Source of the DNA: Candidatus Riflebacteria bacterium HGW-Riflebacteria-2
Lineage (GTDB): Bacteria; Muiribacteriota; Ozemobacteria; Ozemobacterales; Ozemobacteraceae
Assembly (NCBI GenBank): GCA_002839435.1
Contig: PGYA01000007.1
Coordinates: forward strand, 14,756-78,755
Reading direction: 5' to 3'
DNA length: 64,000 nt
Below, piece by piece: positions 53,890 through 63,679 of this stretch. Every line of letters begins with the position of its first letter. The first letter of the stretch is position 1. The notes beneath the pieces were generated by a model. It worked only from the letters and a program-made list of their open reading frames with translations, ran no database searches and was not told the DNA's origin. The translations under genes were made by a program, and so were the position numbers.

Positions 53890-56787
53890 TCAGTTCTGGC
53901 GCAGGGCAGTCAGCTCATAGAGCGGGTATTCGCGGCTTTTGCCCTTGATTTCGGTTCTTGCCAGAAAACTGACGCGGGCGCGGCCGCGCAGCAGGCGTAT
54001 GGTCGAAGGTGCCACAATGATGCCGGTCTGTGTTGTTCTATGCGCTTCGGCTTTGAGACGGGCAGCCAGATTAACCGCATCACCGATGACGGTAAAATCG
54101 AGTTTGCCGAGACGCGAGCCGATGCGGCCGGAAACCACGCTACCGCTGGCAATACCGCCGCGCAAATGAAAGCTGCGTTGGCGCATGGCTTCGACCAGAT
54201 CGAGAATGGCTGAGGCAGCGGCCAGGGCATGGTCGGGCAAATCTTGCGAGCTGCGAAATACCAGCATGAGAGTGTCTTCGATGAGCTTATCGACGACGCC
54301 GCCGCGCGGCATGACAGCACGATTGGCCTCGTCAATGAAAACACCGAGAGCTTTGAACACTTGATCGCCGGCCTGGTCGTGCAGATCATGCAGGCGCACA
54401 AAAGCGACACTGGCTTCGATACGAATACCACCCGGCGCCATACTGTCGTCGGCATCTTCTTCTACCGCACGCATGGCTTCGCTTGAGAGAAAATGAGAAA
54501 GGCGGCGGCGCTGTTCGAGGCCTTTGATCATCTCGTCAAACGCCGACTTGAGTTCACCAAACTCGTCGCTGCCGGTCAGAGCCACCCGCTGCTGGTAGTC
54601 GCCGGCCGCCACGCATTCGGTTACTCTGACAAATTCTGCGATTGGCCGCAGGTAGATGAGTTTGAAAACCAGCAGAATCAGAAACATCAGCGTCAGGCCA
54701 TATAAAGGCAGAAGCATCATATAGCCCGGTGTTATCAGTTGTCCGGCCGCAATCTCAGCCTGTGTCAGCATGAACAAAGGCATATCGGCCATCGAAAAAA
54801 TCTGAGCCAGATGGTTCTTTTCAGGCTCATAAAGATTGTGACCCGAAATCGATGCCAGCTTGAGATGCTCGAGCAATATCGGGTCAGCAACTTCGCTGTT
54901 GTCTGAAAGATCGTAAAAACGCGGAATGCCAAAATCTTCACGCTGAATGAAAAATTGATGCCGCAGATCAGAAACTCCTTTAAAGTGACGATTGGCAAAT
55001 TCACCCAGCAGAATATCACGGTCAAAAGATGCGGTCAGTATTGCCCTGATGCTGTTTTTACCAGGATAGTTGAAATAGATCGAAGAAAAGCGTCGATCAC
55101 TGCCAAATGCGGCAAACTGATAAATTCCGCCGCAACGGTTAACCACCTCGTTGATGAAAGTCGAATCCATCGCGGTAACACTTTCTTCCTCACCCGTAGA
55201 ACTAACGCCGGTAAGAATGCCCTGCTCGTTGAAACCATGCATTATCGTCGCGGCAAACAGTCGCATGCTGGATTCATCTATATTTGACCGATTGTTTGAG
55301 AAATGTGGCGAACTCATATACAAACCATCGAGAAACTTGCGATCGAGTCTCAATTCTGCCAGAGCAGGGCTCTCTTCAAAACAACCCGCGAAAATTGCGC
55401 TAATCTCGTCATCTTTGCCGGCTTCCAGCCGACCTTCGATTTTCAGCGCCAGATCATAGTTAGCGTGCTGCAGATCGAGCAGATAAGAAGCCAGACCCTC
55501 GGTAAAATCGGTAAAAAGCTGCTGTTGTCGAGATTCGAGCCGATAGCGACCAATCACCTGATTGAACTGGTTCCAGCTGACAAAGCCCGCAAACAACAAC
55601 AAGAATGGCAAAACCAGAAGGAATGCAGTGGCAACGATACTCTTGCTGGTAATACCTGCTTTGAACTCAAAGCCAAACAGATAAAGATTTACCAGAAGCA
55701 AGGTACCAGCCAGTATAAAAAGTCGGCCGGCAAAACTGATGTGAGATCGGTAAGCAAACAGAGGGTGCTGCAACTGCGACTCCGCAACCGATATTTCGAG
55801 AAGCGGCAGCCTGCTGGCAATTTCCTGCAGTCGGGCAGGCACGAAAGTGCCACCATGCACAAGGTCAACCATACTGCTACGCGACATTGTCGATTGCAGA
55901 TGATAGCCCTGGTCATCTTCGACAAAGCGAGTTATCGGCTTTTGCAAAGAATGTTTTTGTTCCCAGAGACTGTCAGAAAATCTGACAAAGCTACGTTGCA
56001 GGCCGGGGATAAAGCGCTTAACCGCAGCTCTGGCAACCTTCTGCCAGGCAATATCGCGACCGTTCACGACCAGCAGACAGCCCCCGGTAATACGGGAAAC
56101 GCCGGCCTGCGTCGCTTTGAAGGGGTGATAATAGAAATAGATGGAACCGCCAGGTTTTGCCGAAACAGATCGGCTGACACGAAATGGAACCACCGGCACT
56201 TCAGCGATAAGCGCAAACATGCGCCTGAAAAAAAGATCGGCATCTTTCTTCGCTTTGAGCGGGTTGCTGAAACGAAAAAGAGCCTGTATCGACTCTGCGG
56301 CAGCAGAGCTGTGAAAACCATACAGCTGCTGTTCGTTTACTGAAACGAACCAGCGTCTGGTAAGAGTTCGCGAAATATTCGACAGGCTCCTTCCGAGCTC
56401 CTCGTTGAACCAGTAATCAACACTCTGCGTATCAGCAGAATGAGTAATTACACCAGCAGCCGGCACCCCGGTCTTATCTCGCATGCTCTCAGCCAGTTTT
56501 GCCGGGTCATTGATATTCTGTGAAGCAGGATCGGCAAAAAAAACTTCGCAACTTCGTTGCAGAAAGCTTTCCATTTCGAGATCATTGCGGAAGCGATCCA
56601 TCTCGTTGGTCATTTTAGCGGTCATTGCGCGCAGATTAGCCTGTCTCGTCTGCTTGAACAGAAAATCCAGACTCAACTGTAGAATCAACACCGGTATAAC
56701 AAACACGGCCAGCCATATCGCCAGCAGGGTAAAAGTTCCGATTCGGCGTTCAATATTTATTGCAACTGATCCAGATCGTTCAGTCAT
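53890..56787 (-). CDS. membrane sensor class III adenylate/guanylate cyclase (periplasmic domain + HAMP + cyclase)
   Basis: The C-terminal cyclase block is VAFVRLHDLHD...IASGSVVSGRIGS...FTVIGDAVNLAARL. A HAMP-like segment lies before it. Two TM regions flank a ~300-aa extracytoplasmic domain. Confidence 0.75.
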   Translation of the reverse strand: MTERSGSVAINIERRIGTFTLLAIWLAVFVIPVLILQLSLDFLFKQTRQANLRAMTAKMTNEMDRFRNDLEMESFLQRSCEVFFADPASQNINDPAKLAESMRDKTGVPAAGVITHSADTQSVDYWFNEELGRSLSNISRTLTRRWFVSVNEQQLYGFHSSAAAESIQALFRFSNPLKAKKDADLFFRRMFALIAEVPVVPFRVSRSVSAKPGGSIYFYYHPFKATQAGVSRITGGCLLVVNGRDIAWQKVARAAVKRFIPGLQRSFVRFSDSLWEQKHSLQKPITRFVEDDQGYHLQSTMSRSSMVDLVHGGTFVPARLQEIASRLPLLEISVAESQLQHPLFAYRSHISFAGRLFILAGTLLLVNLYLFGFEFKAGITSKSIVATAFLLVLPFLLLFAGFVSWNQFNQVIGRYRLESRQQQLFTDFTEGLASYLLDLQHANYDLALKIEGRLEAGKDDEISAIFAGCFEESPALAELRLDRKFLDGLYMSSPHFSNNRSNIDESSMRLFAATIMHGFNEQGILTGVSSTGEEESVTAMDSTFINEVVNRCGGIYQFAAFGSDRRFSSIYFNYPGKNSIRAILTASFDRDILLGEFANRHFKGVSDLRHQFFIQREDFGIPRFYDLSDNSEVADPILLEHLKLASISGHNLYEPEKNHLAQIFSMADMPLFMLTQAEIAAGQLITPGYMMLLPLYGLTLMFLILLVFKLIYLRPIAEFVRVTECVAAGDYQQRVALTGSDEFGELKSAFDEMIKGLEQRRRLSHFLSSEAMRAVEEDADDSMAPGGIRIEASVAFVRLHDLHDQAGDQVFKALGVFIDEANRAVMPRGGVVDKLIEDTLMLVFRSSQDLPDHALAAASAILDLVEAMRQRSFHLRGGIASGSVVSGRIGSRLGKLDFTVIGDAVNLAARLKAEAHRTTQTGIIVAPSTIRLLRGRARVSFLARTEIKGKSREYPLYELTALRQN

Positions 56788-59722
56788 CAGACACCTCATC
56801 AGCAACCAGGCAAAAGGCCGGCAAACCACATAAATCAGTCACATCAGACATGGCCGCGGCATTTTTAACACCGGCAGCAGTCTGCTGACAAAGCAAGATC
56901 CGCGACCCGACATGCCGGCTCGCACTTTCGAGCTTTTCAGCAATATGAGTCACTTCACCAATTACTGAAAGCACCTGACGCCCATCAGGGCTGCCGGCGA
57001 TGCCGGACACAGCTTCGCCGGTGGCAATGCCAATTCCGTTATCGATAACAAAAAGTCCGGCAGCGGCGCGCCGGGCATTGAGAGCAACCAGTCGCCGGCG
57101 CATACACATGGCAGCCGTGAGCGCGCGTTCTTCTGGCCGATCAGCCTGATCATGGTAAAAAACTGCCACTACAGCATCGCCGACAAAACGCTCGATAAAG
57201 CCGCCAGATTCCTTGATAGCGGTTTCCATCTCGGTAAAATAGTCGTTGAGCAGGCTCACGATCTGTTGTGGCTCATGTTTTTCACTGAGTGAAGTGAACC
57301 CGCGAATATCACTGGCAAGCAAGGTTACCATACTGCTTTTCGTGCACTCGCTCGCGCTCAGCCCCAGCTGTTCAAAAAGATTATCAGAAACAAAGCGCCG
57401 CATTTTTTCGCGCTGCACTAGACCGGTCGCCATGCGATTGAAAGAACTGGCCAACAGTGAGAACTCGTCAGAATCGGGCATCTGTACGGCAACCTGGTAA
57501 TTGCCTGCCGTTATCTCAGCTGTTGCCTTCTGAAAACCGGAAACAGGGTGTATAAACATTGCTGAAAGCAGATCTGCAAAAAGCAGAAGGCAAAATAATG
57601 TCATTGCCAGCAGAACGAAGGGAAAAAGCTTGAGCAGCAGTTCAAGCCTGAGATCTTGCGAAGCCGTTGAAATACCGGCAAAGACAAGACTGTCACCGCT
57701 TATGTAACGACGATTGACAAATTTGTAATTGCCGTCAGCATTTTGCATGAGGTGTGAACCGCCACTGCGGCTGGCCGCGGCAATATCCAGCTGCTGTTTG
57801 AGCTCGGATGATGAATTGACATAAGCCGGCCACCAGCGCAATATCGTATCATCTACCCGACGCTGCCCGATAAGAAAATCATGTTGTCGCCACGGCATAC
57901 GCTGCGAATATATTTCTGGAACAAACAGTCCAGGGTTAATCAAGATATAATTGGGACTGCTCGTACTGGTATTGCCTATTGCGCGTAAGGGATTTCCGGG
58001 CAATCTGGTATCGGGCAGCAACATATATACCATGCGCGACAATTCGTCGGCCTTTTTCCAATCTCGCGTTTCGACGCATTCACGATGCATGGTCAGGTGT
58101 TCTGAATAAGACTGCTGCAAAGAATCGATAGCGAGAGAATAAAAATCCCCCTGGTCTATGTACTTGCTATTGGTCGGAACCCTGCGGTCGAGGATACCGA
58201 GATGATCGAGATACCTGGCTGCCAGATAACAATCGGCGCGCCGCGAAGAGATGCTTGCTGGATGCCGTGATCTGAAAGCTCTTGTCATACCGTCGTCGCG
58301 ATAAAAGAACAGTTCAAAAAAATTGTCTGGCAACACAATCTTGTGTGAGTGCATTTGTAAAAGCTCGCTTGAAGGTCTTGCCACATGTTCGATAATTCGC
58401 TGTTTGGTCTTGAGGATCTCGAGATTCAGCTGCAGTTTCTGGTCATAGTAATAGCTGATCAGGCGGTACATTGAACTCGTGGCGTCTGCCCTCAGTTCAT
58501 GGCCGGTCAGGTTGTGAAAACTGTCAAACAGGCTCAGGCAGAAGTAGCCAAGCATCGTCCACGGCAGGCAGATAGAAAGAGCTATTATGGTGAGCATGCG
58601 CAGACGCAGGCGAAATGCATCAGGAAACCCGAACAGCATAAAATATATGGCAACTGCCAGAGTGATGATTATGACAAAACGACAGACGAAAGCAATTGAT
58701 CCCAGATGAGCCGCGTGTTCTTTTCTCAAGCTTTTAATCGAAAGTTCGACGCCGATTCGTGTTGGCAGCTGGTTCTGATAACCGCTGATACGACTGTAAC
58801 CTGCCAGTTCAACTGGAAAAGGCTGATTCAACCTGAGTGTATCAGGATCAGTGCTGTTACCAGATGGCGGTGAAGTGTAAAACAGCCTTCTTGTTCCCGG
58901 CCGCGAACTCTTTGTTGCCAGTTCGAGAATTTGATCTACCCCGATATCTCTGCTGGCAAACATGACAAAATAGCCTCCATAAACTAGTTCACCGGCTTTA
59001 ACCGGCAGATTATAGACAAAAAAGCGCCGGCTGCCAAAACGGGTTGTTGCCATCTCGTAAACAGCACCATGATGCGGTGGGCGATAGGCAAGATCGCCAA
59101 CATAGTCGTAAAAGAATTGATGATAAGTGCGTTCACGCCTGCCTGTTTTTACAACCTCAAATAGAAAATTCTGCAATGATTCACCAGCTTTGTGATTATT
59201 GGCAATCACTGCGCTGAAAGTCGCAGTATCGGCAACAATAAACGGCACCACCGCTTCAAAACGCTTTCGATGCTGAATGGGAAAATCCCGCAATTCACCA
59301 TAACTTTGGTTGAACCAGCTCCAGATATCTGTGAAATCGGTGTTGAAGGTGACTATGGCCAGTGGCTGTATTCCTGCCTCTTTCTGATAAAATTCACAGA
59401 GTTGGCCGATTGTTGCTGCCGTAAAGATACCAGCTTCCTGGTTTTGCGGAAAAATTGGGTGATTCATTGTTGCCGAAACAAGGCCGAGCTGAATCTCAGC
59501 CCGTTTGATCAGATTTTCGACAAACTGACGTGGAATGAGGCTCTTGCGAAAATCTGCCAGCTCTTCCTTGAGGCTTTGTTGAGCAACTTCGAGTTGTTGC
59601 TGCCAAAGACGCCCGGAAATATGATTCAAGTCGCTGACAATAAAGAAAAGAGGCGCAAGAACGACAATGGCAAAGACCAGACTTATCGAAAGACGAAGAT
59701 GCAACTCTCTGTTTTTAACCAT
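56780..59722 (-). CDS. membrane sensor class III adenylate/guanylate cyclase (paralog of the downstream gene)
   Basis: Same architecture as the 53890 gene: a HAMP segment (IHPVSGFQKATAEITAGNYQVAV) followed by the cyclase domain (LLASDIRGFTSL...FVGDAVVAVF...IGIATGEAVSGIAG). Confidence 0.75.
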   Translation of the reverse strand: MVKNRELHLRLSISLVFAIVVLAPLFFIVSDLNHISGRLWQQQLEVAQQSLKEELADFRKSLIPRQFVENLIKRAEIQLGLVSATMNHPIFPQNQEAGIFTAATIGQLCEFYQKEAGIQPLAIVTFNTDFTDIWSWFNQSYGELRDFPIQHRKRFEAVVPFIVADTATFSAVIANNHKAGESLQNFLFEVVKTGRRERTYHQFFYDYVGDLAYRPPHHGAVYEMATTRFGSRRFFVYNLPVKAGELVYGGYFVMFASRDIGVDQILELATKSSRPGTRRLFYTSPPSGNSTDPDTLRLNQPFPVELAGYSRISGYQNQLPTRIGVELSIKSLRKEHAAHLGSIAFVCRFVIIITLAVAIYFMLFGFPDAFRLRLRMLTIIALSICLPWTMLGYFCLSLFDSFHNLTGHELRADATSSMYRLISYYYDQKLQLNLEILKTKQRIIEHVARPSSELLQMHSHKIVLPDNFFELFFYRDDGMTRAFRSRHPASISSRRADCYLAARYLDHLGILDRRVPTNSKYIDQGDFYSLAIDSLQQSYSEHLTMHRECVETRDWKKADELSRMVYMLLPDTRLPGNPLRAIGNTSTSSPNYILINPGLFVPEIYSQRMPWRQHDFLIGQRRVDDTILRWWPAYVNSSSELKQQLDIAAASRSGGSHLMQNADGNYKFVNRRYISGDSLVFAGISTASQDLRLELLLKLFPFVLLAMTLFCLLLFADLLSAMFIHPVSGFQKATAEITAGNYQVAVQMPDSDEFSLLASSFNRMATGLVQREKMRRFVSDNLFEQLGLSASECTKSSMVTLLASDIRGFTSLSEKHEPQQIVSLLNDYFTEMETAIKESGGFIERFVGDAVVAVFYHDQADRPEERALTAAMCMRRRLVALNARRAAAGLFVIDNGIGIATGEAVSGIAGSPDGRQVLSVIGEVTHIAEKLESASRHVGSRILLCQQTAAGVKNAAAMSDVTDLCGLPAFCLVADEVSDD

Positions 59723-61222: not shown

Positions 61223-61507
61223 TCAGAGACGATGTTGATATCTGAAAACATCTTCGTGCTGAATGAAAACTTTGACCTGAAGCTGATCGCCCATTGTCTG
61301 CATGCGATTCTGGAATTCCTCAAAGCTGCAGTTGGCTGCAGAAAAATCGGTCATCATCATAAGGGCAAAAAGATCCTGCATGATCTTCTGACTGACGTCT
61401 TCGACGTTGACGTTCGAGTCAGCGATAGTACGGGTAATACCGGCAAGAATACCGGGCTTATTGGCACCGAGTACGGTAATAACGACCTGTTCCTTGTTGT
61501 TGTTCAC
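61223..61507 (-). CDS. ACT-domain protein (UPF0237-like), usual partner of UPF0210
   Basis: Proposed GTG start 61507 with AGGGGG RBS. VVITVLGANKPGILAGITRTIADSNVNVEDVSQKIM is an ACT fold. The longer tool ORF (to 61672) is a translation of the tandem repeat. Confidence 0.6.
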   Translation of the reverse strand: MNNNKEQVVITVLGANKPGILAGITRTIADSNVNVEDVSQKIMQDLFALMMMTDFSAANCSFEEFQNRMQTMGDQLQVKVFIQHEDVFRYQHRL

Positions 61508-61589
61508 CGGGAAGCCCCCTGTTGTCACTATTCTACTGACGCAATATATCAGATAGTTTCGACAAGGTAAAGAATCTTTTCTGCCCAAA

Positions 61590-61676
61590 TCGTGCTCGTT
61601 CGCGTAATCGTAATCGGAAAACGAGAAATAGATTAATAGGACGAAGACGATTACGAGCACGATTACGAGCACGAAA
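61590..61676. repeat. short tandem repeats (CGATTACGAGCAC units in both orientations)
   Basis: gtaatcgtaatcg ... gattacgagcacgattacgagcac. Confidence 0.7.
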
Positions 61677-61680
61677 GAAG

Positions 61681-61712
61681 GGAAATAGAAAAGTCCCCGT
61701 TTGACCGGGGAC
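61681..61712 (-). terminator. rho-independent terminator (minus strand)
   Basis: Minus-strand RNA reads GUCCCCGG-UCAAAC-GGGGAC followed by UUUUCUAUUUC. The stem is 8 bp and GC-rich. Confidence 0.6.
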
Positions 61713-61719
61713 TTTATTG

Positions 61720-62750
61720 AACTAACAGATTAGAATCGGTTTTCCTTCTTGAAGACCTTTCAGTGGGTGGTTACCAGTCACGTCACCGCTTCTGGTTTCC
61801 CCTTCTTGTCGTTACATGTCATCTAGAGTATTAACGCAATTGCACTATGACGCACATTGGTTACGCCAAGCCTAAGGCGTTCATCGCCTTCGAGGCCTTC
61901 GATACAATCACCAGACTGGAGTTAACAAGTCTTTCTATCCTCTTTTCGACTTCTGCCGACTTCAAGGTTCAACACACACTTTCATTGGTTGGATAACACC
62001 AACGCCTTCCTAGGTTTCTTCCCTCTTAGCGCCATCACTACCGGACGTGACAGACAGGATTCCGGCCCTGTCGCATTCCGCTCCCAGGTTTTCTCAACCT
62101 CTCAGCAGAACTTGCGTCGTTAGTAGCTTGCGGGTTTATTCCGCCCCGCTGGCACTTGCAGGGTAATGATCTACAGAGTTTTCCCCTGAGCCGATCGACA
62201 ACTGTTTCCAGCTGTCCTGCTCCTTCGCTGTTACTGTCTCTACACGGTCTTCTTCCAGAAATCACTGGCAGTTCCCACTGCCTGACCGTCGAACTTACAT
62301 TCACCCGATCCTGGTTTTTCCTGGCCCCTTGCTGCAAGCAGCCGGTTTCCATCTTGAGATTCAGCCAACCTTGAAGCCTTGCTCCCGGTTCAGAGCGTCT
62401 CTTACGTTGCCAGGTTTCACCCCGACTCCGCGATTACAACTCTCCTGACCTTTTGTCCTTCGGGGTATCTGGCTATGACAGCCCTGGATAAATCCTTCCT
62501 CCTTCAGGGTTCGAAACCCTCCTGGAGTTTTTCTGCTGCCGTAGTTGGTTTCTCCGACGATGCGGAGCCCTCCCCCCATGGAATTTTTGCCTTTCGACCT
62601 ATACTTCTTCTTCAGTTTCACGTTACCCGAGGTTATTTGTTCCCTTCGGGACCTTAACACCTGTTACCAGATACCAGTATCCTTCTTGAGATAACTGCCT
62701 GAAACCTGCCGGAGCTCAGAAGTATTTGCCTTGCGGCCACCGATTCTATT
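61720..62750 (-). ncRNA. candidate large structured non-coding RNA (ORF-poor ~1 kb upstream of the minus-strand terminator); class unidentified
   Basis: No ORF longer than 104 aa occurs in any frame, and the available ORFs have non-protein-like composition. Many local hairpins are present (e.g. AGGGUUUCGAACCCU, GGUCCCGAAGGGAAC). The region ends at the intrinsic terminator. Confidence 0.25.
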
Positions 62751-63037
62751 GTCAATGATCTGTTCGTTCAACAATTACAGCTTACCGCAAACCGGCAACT
62801 AAAGTCAAACATTTTAAAAAAATATTTTTAAACAACCACAAACACCTATCAACAAAGAACTACAAACAAAACATGTCTTTGGTCGGGCATGGTATGGTCG
62901 AACAATTTTAACTCTACCAGGATACTTATAGTTGTAATAGTCTGGAAACACATTTAATGTTAACGATGTAAGAAGCTGGATGTGCTGCGTTGTTCTTGAT
63001 GCACAGGAAGTAACTTTCGGTTGCGTAATCTCCCTCT

Positions 63038-63086
63038 TGTTTATCTCCAGTATGTATCATATAATTATACTTATTGGAGATAAACA
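63038..63086 (+). promoter_or_regulatory. 12-bp perfect inverted repeat (TGTTTATCTCCA-25 nt AT-rich-TGGAGATAAACA) overlapping the abiEi start: candidate autoregulatory operator
   Basis: Readable directly. The right arm ends at the ATG. Confidence 0.5.
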
Positions 63087-63679
63087 TGTTTAAAGACCAT
63101 GCATTTTTGATGCAGGAACTCAAAGACTATGCCTCGCCTCGGGCAAAGCTTACCAGAATGATCAAGAGCGGCGAAATCATTCAGGTGCGCCGGGGTCTCT
63201 TTCTGGCGGCAAGCGAAAAGGGCTATTCGCTAAAAAGTCTGGCTGCAATCATCTATGGCCCTTCTTACATTTCTTTTGAGTCAGCAGCAAGCTATCATGG
63301 ATTGATTCCTGAACGCGTCAGTGCGATTACTTCAGCGACTTACAAAAAAAATAAAAATCGCAGTTTTCATACGCCGTTTGGCGATTTTTTCTACTATTAT
63401 CTGCCTGCGGCAGTTTACCCTCATTCTGTCAGTTGTGCACAGGAAAATGGCATGAACTTTCTGATTGCGTCACCGGAAAAGGCTCTCTGCGACATGATCT
63501 ACCGCACAGGTAAGGTGTGCAGGCGCGAGGCTATGCGCCAATTGCTGTTTGAAGACTGGCGCATTGAACCAGAAAAGCTCACTGAACTTGACTTTGAGGT
63601 TTTTCGCTTTATCGCGCCACTATATCGAAAAAGAGTGTTCAGCTGCCTGCTATCGCTTTTAGCAGAGGAGCGTTCGTGA
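63086..63679 (+). CDS. abiEi: AbiEi-family antitoxin (type IV TA system)
   Basis: MFKDHAFLMQELKDYASPRAKLTRMIKSGEIIQVRRGLF is an AbiEi_4-type N-terminal wHTH. Its stop overlaps the start of the downstream NTase-like toxin. Confidence 0.7.
   Translation: MFKDHAFLMQELKDYASPRAKLTRMIKSGEIIQVRRGLFLAASEKGYSLKSLAAIIYGPSYISFESAASYHGLIPERVSAITSATYKKNKNRSFHTPFGDFFYYYLPAAVYPHSVSCAQENGMNFLIASPEKALCDMIYRTGKVCRREAMRQLLFEDWRIEPEKLTELDFEVFRFIAPLYRKRVFSCLLSLLAEERS

Follow-up and report, generated by a model that had tools for sequence, protein, structure and literature searches.

The window analysed here, 64,000 nucleotides (nt) of the Candidatus Riflebacteria bacterium HGW-Riflebacteria-2 genome (contig PGYA01000007.1, positions 14,756 to 78,755), carries on its minus strand, at 62772-61716, what is very probably a stand-alone gene for a stable, highly structured non-coding RNA (ncRNA) of ~1,057 nt, belonging to Candidatus Riflebacteria (Rifleibacteriota). 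The gene is independent, conserved, non-coding and heavily base-paired, with its own promoter, terminator and closing helix, and its structured core is homologous with that of other large RNAs, in which the flanking helices carry compensatory changes. An initial annotation of this DNA had proposed a large minus-strand ncRNA ending at a terminator, a proposal now supported by conservation, a non-coding pattern of substitution, covariation, a promoter and a covarying terminator. The limits of the element extend slightly beyond the 61720-62750 first outlined: the RNA spans 62772-61716, the terminator reaches 61680 and the promoter lies up to 62808.

Conservation, folding and limits of the RNA

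Gene callers place a spurious open reading frame (ORF) of 72-86 amino acids (aa) inside the region, and this was used as bait. It matches 12 domain-less 'hypothetical proteins' at 70-94% identity, and the contigs of these matches contain the complete ~1.1 kb element (84-92% nucleotide identity). Among relatives, similarity extends from around 62774-62857, at the promoter, to the terminator, whose last base is 61680. The RNA is conserved more strongly than the flanking genes, as seen in identities to two related contigs, L004 and L007:

RNA: 91.4% (L004), 83.9% (L007)
DUF711: 84.1% (L004), 79.2% (L007)
ACT: 86.3% (L004), 82.8% (L007)
Cyclases: 67-70% (L004), 65-71% (L007)
Integrase: no match in the locus (L004), 75.6% (L007)

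The exact DUF711 protein of the window also occurs on three metagenome contigs, which are identical over the RNA region. With the invariant 23-mer GAUACCCCGAAGGACAAAAGGUC (62469-62447) we retrieved 12 genomes from a species-representative set, and all 12 hold a full-length copy of the RNA. Seven bear the label Candidatus Riflebacteria, Rifleibacterium or Ozemobacteraceae; four others are listed as 'uncultured bacterium' and one as Erysipelotrichia. In the NCBI lineage the hosts fall in the candidate phylum Rifleibacteriota. The contig labelled Erysipelotrichia (L019, SABV01000126.1) is probably mis-binned, since it displays the full Riflebacteria gene order (integrase, the neighbouring protein p968 described below, RNA, ACT, DUF711), with protein identities of 85-87% for ACT, DUF711 and integrase and 69% for p968.

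The region is not translated. The upper limit of 104 aa first noted for the ORFs was confirmed: the longest ORF overlapping 61720-62750 in any frame has 104 aa (62038-62352, minus strand), followed by ORFs of 99, 92 and 72 aa. A Pfam search of the five longest ORFs of the region detected no domain. Substitutions at codon positions 1/2/3 number 366/393/306 and 241/257/258 in two long ORFs of the RNA strand, with variable columns at 50/50/49, hence without any third-position excess. The frames are broken by 1-7 stops or by frameshifting indels in nearly all relatives, also within the phylum. Of the outcomes against which the initial annotation had cautioned, neither a frameshifted pseudogene nor a lack of conservation in relatives was found. 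The plus strand across the element is pyrimidine-rich (GC skew ~-0.2, AT skew down to -0.35), and the minus-strand product therefore consists of 30% G and 31% A, with 19% U and 20% C, a composition typical of structured RNAs. As a side observation, public databases contain more than 130 'hypothetical protein' clusters (P0001-P0132) that are spurious ORFs called inside this RNA and its wider superfamily, among them a recurrent antisense peptide, ...RSQVFSTSQRF..., that is encoded by an invariant hairpin.

Covariation in the aligned relatives, suggested as a check from the outset, is extensive. RNAalifold was applied to an alignment of 30 sequences (A3), comprising 21 Riflebacteria-type copies and nine divergent full-length homologs (tier 2), and returned 305 pairs in 52 helices. 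Standard pairs fill 94.3% of the cells, compared to 37-42% if partners are slid by 1-3 columns. Similarly, 185 pairs are changed on both sides (58-69 when slid), as are 1,021 cells (136-186 when slid), while the covariation score amounts to 0.391 (0.07-0.09 when slid). None of 500 shuffles reached any of the observed pairing values. The two ends of the RNA, its first 34 nt and its last 25 nt, are joined by a terminal helix (P1) of 22 base pairs in three segments, all of which show compensating changes in relatives:

62766..62772, minus strand: P1 outer, 5' strand GUUGAAC, pairs with 61716-61722
61716..61722, minus strand: P1 outer, 3' strand GUUCAAU, pairs with 62766-62772
62758..62762, minus strand: P1 middle, 5' strand CAGAU, pairs with 61726-61730
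61726..61730, minus strand: P1 middle, 3' strand AUCUG, pairs with 62758-62762
62739..62748, minus strand: P1 inner (helix 1), 5' strand UAGAAUCGGU, pairs with 61731-61740
61731..61740, minus strand: P1 inner, 3' strand ACCGAUUCUA, pairs with 62739-62748

Compensatory changes of the outer segment include GUUGAGC/ACUCAAC (L123), GUUAAGC/GCUUAAC (L130) and GUUGGGUGGU/GACCACCCAAC (L036, L076), while the middle segment of L026 has a one-sided change to AUUUG that converts a G-C pair to G-U. Six of the 10 pairs of the inner segment are changed on both sides and 97% of its cells are paired; in tier-2 homologs it reads GCGAACUGGU/ACCAGUUCGC. A further compensating change of the terminal helix in relatives is GUGAGCUGGU/ACCUGCUCAC. 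Enclosed by this helix are five domains:

62589..62737, minus strand: domain 1, RNA positions 36-184, helices 2-9; double changes at 10 of 12 pairs in helix 3 and 9 of 11 in helix 6
62456..62582, minus strand: domain 2, RNA positions 191-317, helices 10-16; contains the invariant CCAUGGGGGGAGG
62168..62450, minus strand: domain 3, RNA positions 323-605, helices 17-31; linked to domain 2 by the invariant 23-mer
62021..62163, minus strand: domain 4, RNA positions 610-752, helices 32-39; the superfamily-wide core
61744..62014, minus strand: domain 5, RNA positions 759-1029, helices 40-52; double changes at 9 of 9 pairs in helix 52 and 7 of 8 in helix 43
62076..62110, minus strand: invariant stem-loop UUCUGCUGAGAGGUUGAGAAAACCUGGGAGCGGAA of domain 4, helices 37 and 38; contains the 20-mer GCUGAGAGGUUGAGAAAACC at 62106-62087

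The 12 genome copies, found by means of the unrelated 23-mer, all carry the stem-loop of domain 4 unchanged, with the layout CUGCUGAG-AGGUU-GAGAA-AACCU-GGGAGCGG. Five consensus hairpins are capped by GNRA tetraloops, and the long invariant single-stranded or junction stretches include, next to that of domain 2, GAUACCCCGAAGGACAAAAGGUCA and GCGCUAAGAGGG.

The transcription unit was delineated using an alignment of 20 sequences (A2):

62803..62808, minus strand: promoter -35 element TTGACT; TTGACT or TTGACA at the equivalent column of relatives, with an A/T-rich tract upstream
62779..62784, minus strand: promoter -10 element TAAGCT, separated from the -35 element by an 18-nt spacer; TAAACT, TAGACT, TATATT or TATACT in relatives
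61716..62772, minus strand: mature RNA body, ~1,057 nt, delimited by the sequence start shared by all copies, the paired ends and the 305-pair model
61680..61715, minus strand: intrinsic terminator, stem-loop at 61715-61690 and U-rich tail at 61689-61680

Across A2 the two elements of this σ70-type promoter are spaced by 17-18 nt, and the promoter is present in every Riflebacteria-type row whose upstream flank is aligned. The terminal helix starts 7 nt after the final -10 base, and in all copies the conserved sequence starts at GUUGAACGAAC (62772), with an invariant start reading GUUGAACGAACAGAUC. Another candidate, TTGAAC-17-TAGAAT (62771-62743), called by a promoter scan, was rejected, as it falls within the conserved sequence of the RNA, where its bases make up the terminal helix. 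The supported promoter is found 30 nt upstream of it. The minus strand holds no gene 5' of the region, as previously described, rather an AT-rich tract (GC 0.33-0.39) and beyond it the plus-strand AbiEi/AbiEii pair.

At the other end, the minus-strand terminator of the initial annotation was recovered by a terminator scan. Its hairpin, AAAGTCCCCGG-TCAAA-CGGGGACTTT, is scored with 10 pairs (6 G-C) and a 6-nt loop, and is followed by the tail TCTATTTCCC / UCUAUUUCCC. The stem covaries among species, with the forms GUCCCCGG/CGGGGAC, GCCUCCGG/CCGGAGGC and ACCCCCCG/CGGGGGU in A2. Metagenome contigs of RNA length (L036, L105, L012 and tier 2; sample type, RNA or DNA, unverified) are bounded by the terminal helix, on which L036 both starts and stops, and transcript-like contigs stop at the outer 3' strand of P1 or inside the terminator stem. 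Thus, 61716-61722 is the likely 3' end of the mature RNA. Separately, contig L010 (Logan SRR26977042) ends in AGATCGGAAGAGCACACGTCTGA, an Illumina adapter, and its 3' end is for this reason an assembly artefact and not an RNA end.

A core shared with other large RNAs

To define the wider superfamily, a metagenome collection was scanned with the 20-mer of domain 4, a second invariant probe independent of the 23-mer, yielding at least 120 contigs that were sorted by profile searches and clustering. Among the matches listed are 11 Riflebacteria-type copies and the nine full-length divergent homologs of tier 2 (contigs of 1,018-1,096 nt). Other clusters are alignable by sequence only over a core of ~110-250 nt:

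Cluster A: at least 51 contigs, ~1.34 kb, GC 63%
Cluster B: at least 19 contigs, ~1.1 kb
Cluster C: at least 16 contigs, 1.09-3.6 kb
Cluster E: at least 7 contigs, 1.6-2.0 kb, GC 48%

The distance from the motif to the 3' end of the contig falls at ~385-430 nt across clusters, among the matches listed. In cluster A, 40 of the 51 contigs listed share the 5' start CGGAACGGUUCC and many end in ...CUGAC (sample type, RNA or DNA, unverified).

A covariance model of a 150-nt core (R1) was run on 100 environmental contigs. At E<=0.001 it recognised 98 of them (1e-19 to 4e-5), in 96 cases over the whole model. About 100 GC-rich contigs of 1.0-2 kb besides the Riflebacteria copies thus possess this covarying core. 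On the window it scores 173.7 bits at domain 4 and nowhere else. Contigs L074 and L044 were rejected as members, being chance 20-mer matches with no R1 match at E<=0.001; in L074 the 20-mer sits within a real amidohydrolase-like gene. Over 96 distinct sequences, pairing in the helices that surround the invariant hairpin reaches 92.4%, compared to 33-46% with slid partners, and 804 cells carry double changes, compared to 57-149. Cluster A alone displays the same behavior, with 390 predicted pairs that are canonical in 91.7% of cells (39-47% slid) and 293 double-change pairs (140-158 slid). A terminal helix of cluster A was not recovered by RNAalifold on the gappy alignment and was seen by eye only, for example in L029 (GGUUCCCGCC/GGCGGAACC).

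Spurious ORFs were exploited to search for longer contexts. For cluster A, 112 database 'proteins' were returned, nearly all on contigs of at most ~1.3 kb, while for tier 2 only contigs of up to 1.1 kb were recovered. One cluster-A contig is long, a 12.5 kb piece of an NCBI metagenome-assembled genome (MAG) with an RNA gene of ~1.47 kb amid ordinary chromosomal genes and with its own intrinsic terminator 10 nt after ...GACUGAC. This copy lies on a MAG chromosome, and the superfamily RNAs are therefore DNA-encoded. We infer that the RNA-length contigs with shared ends are assembled discrete transcripts.

Within cluster C, seven GC-rich contigs (L045, L054, L063, L075, L113, L127 and L135) measure 2.8-3.6 kb, with the RNA core near 560-710, and run on for 2-2.9 kb past the core without a convincing ORF. 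No Rfam hit at gathering thresholds was obtained for four of them (L045, L054, L063 and L135). These contigs could represent far longer non-coding transcripts or several adjacent ncRNAs.

Neighbouring genes and alternative readings

The locus is arranged as initially placed, between ACT/DUF711 (UPF0210) downstream and the AT-rich tract with AbiE upstream. ACT starts at ~61509 and is followed by DUF711/UPF0210 at 61203-59842, both on the same strand as the RNA and downstream of it. Beyond DUF711, at 56780-59722 and in L001/L004, two to three tandem paralogous membrane proteins of ~970 aa with HAMP and guanylate-cyclase domains are encoded; these diverge fast among species (~66-70% nucleotide identity), and in L004 two more are encoded upstream of the RNA.

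In Riflebacteria the commonest neighbour is an upstream protein of ~950 aa (p968), in most of them co-oriented with the RNA and directly adjacent to it. It is located at 2073-4979 of L001, beyond the window, with homologs in L007, L008, L016-L020, L025, L027, L070 and L116. No match to p968 was found in Pfam or PDB; residues 273-373 show weak local similarity to SprA, the outer-membrane translocon of the type IX secretion system (E 8.6e-12, far below cut-off). The p968 gene is preceded by one for a XerC/D-like recombinase and sometimes followed by one for a protein of ~380 aa (p385), which from its sequence reads as a two-pass membrane protein with a zinc ribbon. Both p968 and p385 were rejected as partners of the RNA, as neither appears RNA-related and neither was found outside Riflebacteria. 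A link to AbiE was likewise rejected, because the AbiEi/AbiEii pair, which sits as an insertion between the RNA promoter and the p385 gene, is confined to the window genome. Abutting the AbiEi start codon (63087) is a 23-nt near-perfect palindrome, TGTTTATCTCCAGTATGTATCAT / ATTATACTTATTGGAGATAAACA (63038-63086), which looks like an operator for AbiEi autorepression.

The arrangement with ACT/DUF711 invites the alternative of a giant cis-acting leader, a riboswitch or attenuator whose terminator would regulate the ACT-DUF711-cyclase operon. Indeed, in the window, as at many Riflebacteria loci, ACT-DUF711 directly follows the RNA on the same strand, and the classic attenuator places a terminator between its structured RNA and the operon. 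ACT/DUF711 is however absent downstream in the clade of L017, L020 and L070, where in L070 the next gene is a convergent ORF of 470 aa, and the neighbours are unrelated in the diverged copies L123 and L130 and in the cluster-A locus L148. Moreover, the spacer between terminator and ACT, a stretch of poor conservation, ranges from ~170 to ~570 nt in length, ACT has a promoter-like site with an extended -10 directly in front of it (61571-61543), and the RNA-length contigs stop at the terminal helix. Riboswitches are also not known to come near 1 kb. Aggregated, these observations make a leader highly unlikely. The spacer itself contains an imperfect 27-nt inverted repeat of CGATTACGAGCA-like units (61588-61674), with arms at 61590-61616 and 61648-61674 that are 81% complementary; this stretch is poorly conserved in relatives.

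A divergent or expanded housekeeping RNA that covariance models fail to recognise, such as RNase P RNA, transfer-messenger RNA (tmRNA), signal recognition particle (SRP) RNA, 6S RNA or a ribosomal RNA (rRNA) fragment, is a second alternative. The gene resembles these in being single-copy and strongly conserved, and a terminal helix is also found in RNase P, SRP and 6S RNAs. Likeness extends furthest, as described here, to RNase P RNA, one of the closest analogues, a stable trans-acting RNA with ends joined by a terminal helix, a multi-domain core, invariant junction nucleotides and a single-copy gene with its own promoter and terminator. The initial annotation had failed to match any of these RNAs by eye, congruent with Rfam 15 (4,227 models) and ARAGORN, which find none either. 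A scan of the whole 64 kb window, covering also the large ornate RNAs and group II intron domains, gave no Rfam match at gathering thresholds. At E<=10, the interval 61500-63100 returned noise only (16-22 bits), none of it meaningfully overlapping the RNA body. No match was obtained at gathering thresholds for 12 related contigs, nor even at E<=1 for 17 representatives across the clusters (nine contigs: one spurious hit or none). Models of RNase P, tmRNA, SRP, 6S and rRNA specifically gave no hit at E<=10 here and none at E<=1 on ten superfamily members. In the 64 kb window ARAGORN detected no tRNA and no tmRNA, thus neither a tRNA-like domain nor a tag frame. The stretches CCGGGAGCAAAG and GUGCCAG...GGAA.AAACCCAC resemble RNase P motifs, by eye only, but in our reading their order differs from that in RNase P RNA. 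Finally, 1,057 nt is 2.5 to 10 times the size of the housekeeping RNAs, and ~2.5 times that of RNase P RNA. Such an identity is highly improbable.

Also highly improbable is the RNA of a mobile or selfish element, such as an ORF-less group II intron, a retron, an insertion-sequence-associated guide or a phage-borne RNA similar to GOLLD or ROOL. The window genome has the AbiE toxin-antitoxin pair and a tyrosine recombinase gene close to the RNA, phage association is frequent for GOLLD and ROOL, and group II introns share the approximate size and a multi-domain architecture around a central junction. However, the locus is syntenic and single-copy across species, with the core occurring once in the window by model R1, AbiE is restricted to the window genome, and the recombinase is a conserved chromosomal neighbour of the RNA (76-96% identity). 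Nor was there any match to intron models, including domain V and D1-D4, any intron-encoded protein, reverse transcriptase or transposase ORF, or any direct repeat flanking the RNA, which lies outside any gene and has its own promoter and terminator. The 1.1 kb region gave no blastn match to phages (50,697 phage records) or plasmids in distant mode, scans of viral contigs with a 24-mer and with the 20-mer were negative, and no tRNAs are nearby.

A degraded or frameshifted protein gene, or a gene for the annotated ~85-aa protein, has a negligible probability and is refuted for practical purposes: gene callers do predict an ORF of 85-86 aa with 12 matching 'hypothetical proteins', but these matches, domain-less and on RNA-length contigs, arise because the nucleotide sequence is conserved, and besides the frame broken by 2-6 stops or by frameshifts in nearly all relatives, the even codon positions and the missing Pfam domain, the substitution pattern is accounted for by compensatory base-pair changes.

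Several points nevertheless weigh against the stand-alone RNA gene, or against the breadth assigned to its relatives. The -10 element of the window genome is weak; TAAGCT matches the consensus in only three of six bases, which is why the promoter scan missed it. The sequences of A3 are related, so that the shuffle controls overstate significance and the slid-partner controls are the fairer ones. The superfamily was retrieved by an exact 20-mer, making the invariance of this 20-mer among the contigs circular, and the 96-sequence core alignment was fitted to model R1. The transcript status of the contigs of ~1.0-1.3 kb relies on lengths and shared ends, not on sample metadata. Lastly, a description of the RNA may exist outside Rfam 15 and the literature searched.

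Relation to known large RNAs and significance

Taken as a stand-alone gene, the locus has the attributes by which ncRNA genes are generally recognised: its own promoter and terminator, conservation above that of its flanks and significant covariation. Its product would accumulate as a discrete, end-defined and stable molecule and most likely acts in trans, since the gene neighbours are not conserved. By analogy to other large, highly conserved RNAs, it likely serves as the scaffold of a ribonucleoprotein (RNP), forms a self-assembling RNA architecture or works as a ribozyme; its putative functional centre is the invariant hairpin of domain 4. The general category of large ornate ncRNA is already known. 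Within it, the RNA is best regarded as the first member of a new class, because no catalogued family was matched, the tests of membership in known families came out negative, and no description of it was found in the literature on Riflebacteria ncRNA, large ncRNA classes and DUF711/ACT.

Among the closest parallels are GOLLD (~800 nt) and ROOL (~580 nt), which similarly are very large, multi-domain and supported by covariation, with many conserved unpaired nucleotides. The present RNA has no covariance-model similarity to either, is longer (1,057 nt, with relatives up to ~2 kb), and is chromosomal and syntenic, without tRNA neighbours or phage and viral matches, in another host phylum. OLE is also comparable, being a large, highly conserved, single-copy chromosomal ncRNA that is part of an RNP (PMC12054373, PMC12265935), and its size and conservation have been argued to imply a sophisticated function. 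In contrast to OLE, which spans ~600 nt, occurs mostly in Bacillota and is linked to oap genes, the present RNA gives no match to the OLE model, is found in Rifleibacteriota and further GC-rich lineages, and lacks any conserved protein-gene partner, with p968/p385 upstream and ACT/DUF711 or others downstream. Cryo-electron microscopy has revealed GOLLD, ROOL and OLE as RNA-only homo-oligomeric assemblies (PMC12286853). By analogy, an RNA-only homo-oligomer is a plausible mode of action also here.

The data bear on a small group of molecules. Few large ornate bacterial RNAs are known, namely rRNAs, RNase P, group I/II introns, tmRNA, OLE, GOLLD, ROOL, raiA and HEARO, and all of these classes have proved to be ribozymes, RNP cores or RNA-only assemblies without precedent. 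At ~1,060 nt and with ~300 covarying pairs, the RNA would exceed GOLLD and rank among the largest structured non-ribosomal bacterial RNAs reported. Nor is it limited to one candidate phylum; its core links to at least four other clusters of RNAs of 1.0-2 kb, and the superfamily RNAs recur with defined ends in many environmental assemblies. A bolder proposal, which we put forward tentatively and hold to be rather doubtful, is that the RNA and its relatives form a so far unrecognised, phylogenetically broad class comprising the largest non-ribosomal structured bacterial RNAs (1.0-2 kb, possibly >3 kb), abundant and acting as a new natural ribozyme or a self-assembling RNA/RNP machine built around the GAGAGGUUGAGAAAACCUG hairpin. 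If true, this would be an RNA of housekeeping grade, overlooked so far because its hosts are uncultured.

For annotation, a practical point is that gene callers now place spurious 'hypothetical proteins' within the RNA. For biology, the finding raises the questions of what role an RNA this complex plays, whether it oligomerises like ROOL, GOLLD and OLE, and by which proteins its invariant hairpin is bound. Structure probing, cryo-electron microscopy and a systematic census can begin from the present alignments and core covariance model.

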